From: Escherichia phage VB-EcoM-WM
Strand: one strand, 5' to 3'
Sequence record: PQ014731.1
DNA length: 64,000 nucleotides
The position numbers and the translations under genes were made by a program. Below, piece by piece: positions 55,868 through 55,966 of the stretch (the first letter of the stretch is position 1; each line of letters starts with the position of its first letter). The notes beneath the pieces are model-generated. The model did no database searches. It had not been told where the DNA came from and worked only from the letters and a program-made list of their open reading frames with translations.

Positions 55868-55966
55868 GCTAGGTAAGCCCTTTGGCAAGGGCGAGGATTT
55901 TTAATCCTGAAAATAGACGAGGTAGTCGTTGAATACATAGATGGTTCGATTCCATCACCTAGCACC
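55868..55966 (+). tRNA. atypical tRNA-like gene, anticodon TTT (Lys) with about 30-nt extra region
   Basis: Acceptor GCTAGGT/ACCTAGC, D-arm GCCC/GGGC, T-arm GATGG-TTCGATT-CCATC; anticodon arm only 4 bp; no encoded CCA. Confidence 0.4.

Follow-up and report, generated by a model that had tools for sequence, protein, structure and literature searches.

What kind of RNA is encoded by the five-armed, tRNA-shaped element at positions 55868-55966 of Escherichia phage VB-EcoM-WM? The window, i.e. the whole stretch of 64,000 nucleotides (nt) that was analyzed (PQ014731.1), comes from an rV5-like Vequintavirus, an E. coli myovirus of ~138 kb, and is 99.6% identical to phage YP-6 over the element region. 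A first-pass annotation, made from the letters alone, had described an atypical tRNA-like gene with a Lys anticodon and offered a degenerate tRNA, a tRNA with an insertion or a decoy as explanations. All parts that it named (acceptor stem, D arm, T arm, TTTTTAA loop, anticodon stem of 4 base pairs (bp), a separate 4-bp hairpin and the lack of an encoded CCA) were found where it had placed them. We found that the element belongs to a structurally constrained family of phage RNAs, and we tentatively favor the view that its Vequintavirus copy is a body-remodelled, chargeable stand-in for tRNA-Lys in the conflict with anticodon nucleases. The full element reads GCUAGGU-AA-GCCCUUUGGCAAGGGC-G-AGGA-UUUUUAA-UCCU-GAAAAUAG-ACGAGGUAGUCGU-UGAAUACAUA-GAUGG-UUCGAUU-CCAUC-ACCUAGC-A-CC, and its parts in the window are as follows.

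55868-55966, + strand: the whole five-armed tRNA-shaped element
55868-55874, + strand: acceptor 5' strand GCUAGGU, partner 55957-55963; 7/7 paired in 21/21 aligned sequences, three compensatory pairs
55875-55876, + strand: linker A8 A9; AA or AG in every member
55877-55892, + strand: D arm with a 6-bp stem (GCCCUU/AAGGGC) and a 4-nt loop (UGGC), from the minimum free energy (MFE) fold; stem 6/6 paired in all members, three compensatory pairs
55893, + strand: single G linking the D arm to the anticodon-like hairpin; invariant family-wide
55894-55908, + strand: anticodon-like hairpin AGGA/UUUUUAA/UCCU, with the "anticodon" UUU at 55900-55902, from the sequence; stem covaries
55909-55916, + strand: 5' junction strand GAAAAUAG; G-A-A-A-A invariant in the aligned set
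55917-55929, + strand: fifth hairpin ACGA-GGUAG-UCGU; a hairpin is at the same place in every member
55930-55939, + strand: 3' junction strand UGAAUACAUA, which abuts the T stem directly; AAUACAUA and the first G of the T stem invariant in every recovered sequence
55940-55956, + strand: T arm GAUGG-UUCGAUU-CCAUC with a canonical T loop; stem 5/5 paired in all members, two compensatory pairs
55957-55963, + strand: acceptor 3' strand ACCUAGC, pairing with 55868-55874
55964-55966, + strand: discriminator A73 (55964) and CC; with U as the following base, CCA is incomplete

The MFE fold of the element is a five-helix cloverleaf of -34.8 kcal/mol, compared to -21.1 ± 3.4 kcal/mol for shuffled sequences (z = -4.0), and none of 200 shuffles was as stable. 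Position 8 is an A in all family members, in contrast to the near-universal U8 of tRNAs. Since only G55893 lies between the D and anticodon-like helices, either position 26 or one pair of the anticodon stem is absent.

The element was present in ~120 Vequintavirus records at 95-100% identity. Using diverged copies and the conserved 3' motif as queries, we detected orthologs in Avunavirus (E. coli), Seunavirus (Salmonella, Cronobacter, E. coli), Mydovirus (Klebsiella, Proteus, Raoultella), Henunavirus (Erwinia) and contigs of uncultivated phages, giving ~190 phage records in total. The alignment used here contained 21 distinct sequences from five genera; metagenomes yielded another five variants. 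With a covariance model of the family, its members reached 100-120 bits, no ordinary tRNA exceeded 28 bits, and only one copy was found in a complete Vequintavirus genome. When the conserved 3' motif was scanned against 185,579 bacterial and archaeal genomes, only two chance matches lacking a cloverleaf were obtained, and a bacterial origin of the element was rejected on this basis. The family is single-copy, phage-restricted and found throughout the Vequintavirinae. The founding rV5 genome paper listed six tRNAs and omitted the element (PMC3606486), and no published description of it was found in the full-text literature that could be reached. Eighteen unannotated "Campylobacter phage" records (GenBank MG0656xx) also matched the element; those compared over the tRNA cluster were 98-99% identical to the E. 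coli Vequintavirus analyzed here, and a mislabelled host or a contaminating coliphage seems more likely than true Campylobacter phages.

Is such a gene maintained or decaying? In the 21 aligned sequences, standard pairs occupied 473 of 473 cells of the four stems (acceptor, 7 bp; D, 6 bp; anticodon-like, 4 bp; T, 5 bp). Changes on both sides were seen at ten pairs, amounting to 54 cells, whereas column shuffles gave 14.6 ± 2.7 and slid partners 0-8. In addition, the elbow pair G19:C56, between the third D-loop base and a T-loop base, was G:C in 14 sequences and U:A in 7, a joint switch which indicates that the tRNA elbow is preserved. Fully paired stems, compensatory changes and elbow covariation together show, as far as comparison of sequences goes, that the cloverleaf is under purifying selection and that the gene is functional and not a decaying pseudogene. 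The degenerate tRNA of the first-pass annotation is also at odds with the near-identity among ~120 genomes and with the finding that, among orthologs from five genera, each stem and one tertiary pair have undergone compensatory change. Although ARAGORN could not assign the gene, its CCA is incomplete and some phages have lost it, a pseudogene is the least probable of all explanations considered, as this single-copy gene is kept in synteny next to tRNA-Thr.

A fifth hairpin, of 4-9 bp, occurs in every member, and its sequences are unrelated between subgroups. Its stem ACGA/UCGU in the window corresponds to ACGG/CCGU in Avunavirus, a compensatory change, and a loop UUUUAGG is common to two lineages in which it is carried by the stems CAU(U)CAC/GUGAUG and UAUGGUC/GACAUA. 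One type of fifth arm (in L023, L024, L026, L015, L016 and L080) has a conserved 11-12-nt loop, GAA(C/U)UAACAG(U/C)A, on covarying stems; the GAA ... AGUA arrangement of this loop presumably resembles a loop-E/sarcin-ricin motif. Several candidate interactions were considered and rejected. The pairs UCCA/UGGA (several Seunaviruses) and GCCA/UGGC (4MG) had the look of covariation between the anticodon-like loop and the fifth-arm loop. A scan for kissing between these loops found only runs of 3-5 nt, which is the chance level; such runs often lay buried in stems and were missing from Ro1, Erwinia and K54rec1. Pairing of a fifth-arm UGGAG with the element's own 3' CUCCA was seen by eye in some Seunaviruses and Mydovirus and was not family-wide. 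Finally, an antisense seed in the invariant AAUACAUAG had two complementary sites in the window, compared to 0.58 expected, and one of these was the element itself.

To which class of RNA does the element belong? Its atypical character was borne out by ARAGORN, which called a gene at exactly 55868-55966 and reported it as "tRNA-???" with a 4-base anticodon (atcc), i.e. with no standard type II identity. The Rfam tRNA model matched at 37.5 bits, above its gathering score of 29; of the five tRNA matches in the window, only one scored lower. In this alignment, the variable region holds 26 inserted nt, one position is deleted and the anticodon stem has one mispair. Features shared with tRNAs include the 7-bp acceptor, the 5-bp T stem, a T loop of the U54-U55-C56-R57-A58 type and the elbow, with these pairs kept family-wide; the D loop holds GG, or GU with a compensating A56. 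However, the family did not fit a canonical class I tRNA: it lacks U8 and the combination of a 4-bp D stem with a 7-11-nt loop (the D arm can be 6 bp with 4 nt), the region between the anticodon-like stem and the T stem is 31 nt here (55909-55939) and 38-41 nt in other genera versus a required variable loop of 4-5 nt, and both anticodon and discriminator vary among orthologs (seven loop types and three discriminators in the matched set described below). The window copy itself has a 7-nt loop with U33 and A37, on an anticodon stem of only 4 bp preceded by the single G. Class II tRNAs (Leu, Ser, Tyr) were also rejected, as 7-9 unpaired nt precede the extra hairpin and 10-11 follow it versus 1-2 nt required, the anticodon is UUU here, and the U73 of most family members fits none of the three.

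Another candidate was tRNA-Sec (RF01852), with which the element shares a 6-bp D stem, a 4-nt loop and a long extra arm. RF01852 was the best-scoring Rfam model for members outside Vequintavirus, and one subgroup has a loop ([C/U]AUCAAA) that is near that of tRNA-Sec, which in E. coli is CUUCAAA. Nevertheless, the family scored 23-39 bits, below the gathering score of 47, its acceptor/T branch is 7/5 and not 8/5, and the T and acceptor strands abut with no unpaired base by which the branch could be lengthened. In addition, tRNA-Sec requires a UCA anticodon and G73, whereas the window copy combines UUU with A73 and the UCA-type subgroup combines A33 with U73. Allo-tRNAs and the selC* tRNA-Cys (PMC5389517) are likewise Sec-like with a long variable arm, have diverse anticodons that can be switched (sense and stop) and occur in some phages, and they have been proposed to act as "suppressor or regulatory RNA" (Mukai et al. 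2017, PMC5389517); however, they are defined by 8/4 or 9/3 branches, compared to 7/5 in 21/21 of our sequences, and lack the invariant junction strands. Neither ARAGORN nor Rfam reported a tmRNA at the element. Database labels for the family are conflicting, including tRNA-Lys, tRNA-OTHER, tRNA-???(atcc), tRNA-TERM and suppressor, and some copies are unannotated. The element is a variant of a tRNA or tRNA-like RNA and not a categorically new entity.

The anticodon-like hairpins fall into three forms. Form (a), AGGU-CC[A/C/U][U/G]CCAG-ACCU, occurs in Seunavirus and Mydovirus and can be drawn as an 8-nt loop on a 4-bp stem or a 6-nt loop on a 5-bp stem. Form (b), GGGC-[C/U]AUCAAA-GCCC, occurs in Henunavirus and some uncultivated phages and is labelled tRNA-sup(tca) or tRNA-TERM in GenBank. 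Form (c) is AGGA-UUUUUAA-UCCU in Vequintavirus, with the loop UUUAUAA in Avunavirus, and has the canonical UU-NNN-AA arrangement. Apart from the non-U at position 33, form (a) is similar to a Gly anticodon loop and form (b) to that of Sec/opal. The 3' ends are U73-CCA in forms (a) and (b), A73-CC in Vequintavirus and U/C73-ACA in Avunavirus; A73 is found only in Vequintavirus, and most other genera have U73. Because orthologs carry UAU, UCA and [U/G]CC loops with other discriminators, the designation tRNA-Lys appears to fit the Vequintavirus copy (UUU, A73) and not the family, and the Lys anticodon noted in the first-pass annotation is the version of this genus only.

We further compared the element with tRNA-Thr(UGU) in the same 25 genomes. 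Mean pairwise identities were as follows.

Anticodon loop: tRNA-Thr(UGU) 0.94; element 0.60 (seven loop types)
Discriminator: tRNA-Thr(UGU) 1.00; element 0.47 (A, U, C)
Anticodon stem: tRNA-Thr(UGU) 0.53-0.54; element 0.81
5' junction strand (GAAAA...): not applicable to tRNA-Thr; element 0.88
3' junction strand (...AAUACAUA): not applicable to tRNA-Thr; element 0.87
T loop: tRNA-Thr(UGU) 0.77; element 0.93

What, then, could the Vequintavirus copy do? The identity set of E. coli lysyl-tRNA synthetase (LysRS) consists of U34-U35-U36 and A73, and, as read from the sequence, it is present in the window copy (UUU at 55900-55902 and A73 at 55964). Moreover, the segment U33-C40 is identical to that of E. 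coli tRNA-Lys, the host sequence being verified in 5426/5426 E. coli genomes. Compared across three genera, the relation of the element to separate tRNA-Lys genes was as follows.

Vequintavirus: no separate tRNA-Lys(UUU) in the complete genome; element loop UUU; non-redundant for Lys
Avunavirus: separate tRNA-Lys(UUU) of normal size; element loop UAU; a CAU tRNA also present
Seunavirus: separate tRNA-Lys(UUU) of 86-87 nt; element loop UCC-like, duplicating a canonical tRNA-Gly(UCC)

Filling of anticodon gaps beyond Lys was considered and rejected: it fails for Ile-AUA, since Av-05 has a CAU tRNA, and for Gly-UCC in Seunavirus, and non-redundancy therefore holds only for Lys.

The genes around the element also bear on its role. 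The order in the cluster is Arg(UCU), Tyr(GUA), Ser(UGA), the element, Thr(UGU), a CAU tRNA and a disrupted Pro(UGG). The features relevant here are listed below.

55312-55340, + strand: putative sigma-70-type promoter match TTGACA-17-TAATAT at the head of the tRNA cluster (consensus scan, 10/12)
55971-56046, + strand: tRNA-Thr(UGU), adjoining the element (ARAGORN and Rfam, 77.1 bits)
50108-50458, - strand: cyclic-phosphate-processing receiver-domain protein (PF20274, 53.3 bits)
50455-51390, - strand: Rnl1-family RNA ligase (PF09511, 55.7 bits)
51491-51901, + strand: P-loop kinase (PF13671, 42.7 bits)
51909-52463, + strand: metallophosphoesterase (PF00149, 28.5 bits)

In 41 of 53 copies examined, a tRNA-Thr(UGU) was encoded on the same strand no more than 400 nt from the element, and it was directly adjacent in every cluster inspected. 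The last four genes form an RNA-repair module (50108-52463) ~3 kb upstream of the element, and in the relative EmilHeitz the same genes are annotated as RNA ligase, polynucleotide kinase and phosphoesterase. In T4, this set of enzymes repairs tRNA-Lys cut by PrrC. The repair gene set of the window (49338-52463) also contains a SIR2-family protein gene.

AriB of the PARIS system cuts E. coli tRNA-Lys(UUU) and tRNA-Thr(UGU) between C40 and A41 of the motif U36-A-A-U-C-A41, with tRNA-Thr(UGU) as its second main target (PMC12409363), and phage tRNA-Lys genes or variants rescue infection from PARIS and PrrC (PMC12409363; PMC11555353). The tRNA-Lys of T5 escapes AriB by the changes U39A and A41C, and AriB also needs contacts outside the anticodon arm (PMC12409363; PMC11555353). 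The phage tRNA-Thr(UGU) adjacent to the element carries U36AAUCA. The suggested link between the element and tRNA-Lys nucleases thus gained circumstantial support, namely the repair module 3 kb upstream, the host-identical U33-C40 and the adjacent tRNA-Thr(UGU).

In the scheme that we favor, with the reservation expressed above, transcription of the element would start at the 55312 promoter, together with the rest of the tRNA cluster; RNase P and 3' trimming would release it, as they do its neighbors, and the host enzyme would complete its CCA end. The Vequintavirus hairpin and 3' end may have acquired the lysine identity set (U33-C40 as in host tRNA-Lys(UUU), and A73), in which case LysRS would charge the RNA. 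Once charged, the element could replace host tRNA-Lys(UUU), which is the most frequent target of the anticodon nucleases of E. coli (PrrC, PARIS AriB, Schlafen). Owing to its remodelled body (A8, long D stem, short anticodon arm and 31-nt fifth-arm region), it would be cut poorly by nucleases that also read the body of a tRNA. The element might act jointly with the adjacent phage tRNA-Thr(UGU) and the upstream ligase/kinase/phosphoesterase module. By analogy, a precedent may be seen in the tRNA-Lys(UUU) and tRNA-Asn(GUU) of the same subfamily, which have structural add-ons and canonical anticodon loops.

Several observations weigh against a charged stand-in. The element does not fully encode CCA (A-C-C-U), yet all five intact neighboring tRNAs do. 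Position 8 is an A, and in folding calculations the anticodon-like hairpin alone could also close to 6 bp with a UUU triloop. The natural deletion mutants V18 and JES2013 lack an intact element and are nevertheless viable, so the element is dispensable for plaque formation on laboratory hosts; in V18 (L006:~1150-1250), the deletion has joined the 5' part of tRNA-Tyr to the element's 3' half, with loss of tRNA-Ser and most of the element. Further points against the stand-in also favor a different explanation, which we regard as a serious possibility and place second: a non-decoding tRNA mimic, whose canonical top half (acceptor, T arm, elbow) would serve processing, stability and binding by tRNA-handling proteins and whose bottom half (short hairpin, fifth arm, invariant junction strands) would be a separate module. 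With its Vequintavirus hairpin copying the anticodon loop of host tRNA-Lys, the RNA would act as a competitive substrate or inhibitor (decoy) for a tRNA-Lys nuclease, or else bind another host or phage protein. First, the pattern of constraint is inverted relative to tRNA-Thr of the same genomes, the discriminator and anticodon loop being the least conserved parts of the element and the most conserved parts of tRNA-Thr. Second, most orthologs have a 6- or 8-nt loop or a non-U33 (A or C at this position). Third, the anticodon arm is 15-16 nt in the family (15 nt here) versus the canonical 17, i.e. one layer shorter. Fourth, the UCC-like loop of the Seunavirus element is redundant with a canonical tRNA-Gly(UCC). 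Finally, as U33-C40 is identical to the host sequence, the element keeps the AriB motif U36-A-A-U-C and lacks the U39A escape change of T5; this retained motif fits mimicry at least as well as evasion.

A mimic would also be in line with the near-invariant junction strands and with the fifth-arm loop motifs kept over covarying stems. A possible precedent is found in T4 rnaC and rnaD (species 1 and 2), which, like the element, are stable non-tRNA RNAs inside a phage tRNA cluster, with function unassigned in the record. In particular, rnaC is tRNA-like: its fold shows a canonical T arm, a stem that closes the molecule at its ends and, immediately ahead of the T arm, a hairpin. No decoding role has been assigned to it. 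However, rnaC and rnaD are 139 and 119 nt long, have other architectures and belong to another phage family. Homology was rejected since the family covariance model gave no match to them, and rnaC is therefore an analog of the element and not a relative. Against a mimic stand the exactly canonical UU-NNN-AA loops of Vequintavirus and Avunavirus and the coincidence of A73 with UUU in Vequintavirus, which has no other tRNA-Lys. In addition, no partner protein or target was identified, and a decoy seems superfluous where the phage already has a repair module. The insertion-bearing tRNA and the decoy put forward in the first-pass annotation thus both survive, as the two leading explanations.

Could the element simply supply a codon? 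An ordinary tRNA-Lys with a tolerated insertion in the variable region, and with no role in evading defense, would agree with the other tRNAs for A/U-ending codons in the cluster (Arg-UCU, Thr-UGU), with a score above the Rfam tRNA threshold and with several GenBank records that say tRNA-Lys. We nevertheless consider it unlikely. E. coli has a median of six tRNA-Lys(UUU) genes, so the supply of this tRNA would not be limiting. The flanks of the "insertion" are among the most conserved parts of the element across five genera, the opposite of what a neutral passenger would show, and the orthologs are not Lys tRNAs.

A further explanation takes the element as a precursor, from which the 30-nt region would be excised and the halves rejoined by the phage kinase, phosphoesterase and ligase (heal-and-seal splicing) to give a tRNA of normal size. 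Genes for an Rnl1-type ligase, a kinase, a phosphoesterase and a cyclic-phosphate-domain protein are indeed located 3 kb away, and near-invariant sequence flanks the variable hairpin on both sides. However, Rfam intron models gave no match at 55868-55966, where the insert is only 31 nt, whereas the group I intron of the window was found at 92.7 bits. Excision would also leave the 4-bp anticodon stem, A8 and the 6-bp D stem unrepaired, and the fifth-arm loops are conserved as if they were functional in the mature RNA. We know of no endonuclease or recognition motif for such an excision in bacteria, and regard this explanation as very improbable.

How does the proposed stand-in compare with known phage tRNAs? 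Among the closest known parallels are the phage tRNA-Lys(UUU) variants that counter PARIS (AriB) and PrrC, such as that of T5 (PMC11464382, PMC12409363, PMC11555353). Like them, the element is phage-encoded, has a UUU loop and A73, is clustered next to tRNA-Thr(UGU), the other target of AriB, and has a body sequence unrelated to host tRNA-Lys. However, the T5 tRNA belongs to class I, has the normal length of 76 nt and owes its escape to changes in its anticodon stem (U39A, A41C), whereas the element has kept U36AAUC and has a rebuilt body. This body has a fifth arm, a 4-bp anticodon stem, a 6-bp D stem and A8, the element's orthologs are not Lys tRNAs, and it is known from sequence alone. On the other hand, the expanded tRNA-Lys and tRNA-Asn of Seunavirus and Avunavirus share the subfamily and the clusters with the element and have class I identities plus extra hairpins; unlike the element, they have canonical anticodon arms, U8 and invariant identity elements, are 85-91 nt long and lack the GAAAA and AAUACAUA strands.

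These over-long class I tRNAs were located in GAP31 (L162:3018-3104, 3274-3362 and 4088-4169), PVP-SE1 (L163:2579-2664 and 2433-2517) and Av-05 (L164:4636-4726). The Seunavirus tRNA-Lys(UUU), 86-87 nt long, contains a 10-nt mini-hairpin in its D loop, GAC-GUAU-GUC in GAP31 and GAC-GCAA-GUC in PVP-SE1. The tRNA-Asn(GUU) of Seunavirus and Avunavirus (85-91 nt) has a long variable arm with a compensatory change (GGGA/UCCC versus GAGU/ACUC), and a CAU tRNA of Seunavirus (82 nt) has an enlarged D loop. ARAGORN misses the over-long Lys and CAU genes of these sister genera. Because their anticodon arms and discriminators are canonical, the over-long Lys, Asn and CAU tRNAs look like real decoders with structural add-ons. 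Both tRNA-Lys(UUU) and tRNA-Asn(GUU) are targets of AriB, and such over-long versions in sister genera suggest that remodelling the body of nuclease-targeted tRNAs may be a habit of the Vequintavirinae.

Extended to the whole family, the idea would be that the element is a purpose-built tRNA chassis or mimic against tRNA-targeting immunity, with a five-way-junction body that is invisible or inhibitory to host tRNases and into which different genera have installed different loops (Lys UUU, Ile UAU, opal UCA, Gly-like [U/G]CC). We offer this broader proposal as a speculation that is rather less probable than not to hold. If it is correct, it would, together with the expanded tRNA-Lys and tRNA-Asn of the sister genera, make body remodelling, beyond point mutation of the anticodon loop, a general counter-defense strategy.

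Phage tRNAs have recently been shown to neutralize tRNA-cleaving defenses, including PARIS, PrrC and retron Eco7. To our knowledge, these counter-defense tRNAs are normal-sized and carry point changes in the anticodon arm. The element differs from them in its conserved five-helix architecture, its near-invariant junction strands and its genus-swapped "anticodon" and discriminator. Should it be a nuclease-proof tRNA or a tRNase decoy, it would represent a new phage counter-defense mechanism and a natural engineering scaffold; as a non-decoding tRNA mimic, it would open a new class of non-coding RNAs in phages. In both cases, the element, whose carriers include therapy candidates and BASEL collection phages, is currently misclassified when tRNAs are counted or codon usage is analyzed in such phages.

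Additional deviant tRNAs were observed in these clusters. In Av-05, a tRNA-Ile(GAU) (L164:6576-6648, - strand) has C33 in place of U33 and a non-canonical T loop (GGCAGAG), and the CAU tRNA (L164:~3741-3816, - strand) was missed by both ARAGORN and Rfam. Deviant or missed tRNAs seem common in Vequintavirinae clusters, and published tRNA counts for such phages are therefore unreliable.

Within the cluster of the window, two spacers of ~100 nt (55565-55678 and 55770-55867) have no assigned gene and are kept in close relatives; the first holds a promoter-like ATGACA-18-TATACT (55600-55629). These spacers could hold further small RNAs or internal promoters. Downstream, tRNA-Pro(UGG) (56133-56556) is broken by an open reading frame (ORF) for a 113-amino-acid HNH endonuclease (PF01844, 56169-56510), and 13 phage records match at least 80% of a 1.1-kb query spanning this insertion. 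Compared to the intact gene of EduardKellenberger, the insertion replaced 7 nt (CGCCTGA) comprising the end of the D stem, position 26 and the 5' strand of the anticodon stem, and because of this replacement the tRNA looks inactivated rather than split by an intron. The group I intron (RF00028, 92.7 bits, match 58393-58617; ~58398-58675) splits the gene for the large terminase subunit, whose flanking ORFs are at 57660-58409 and 58736-59473; the same gene is uninterrupted in EmilHeitz.

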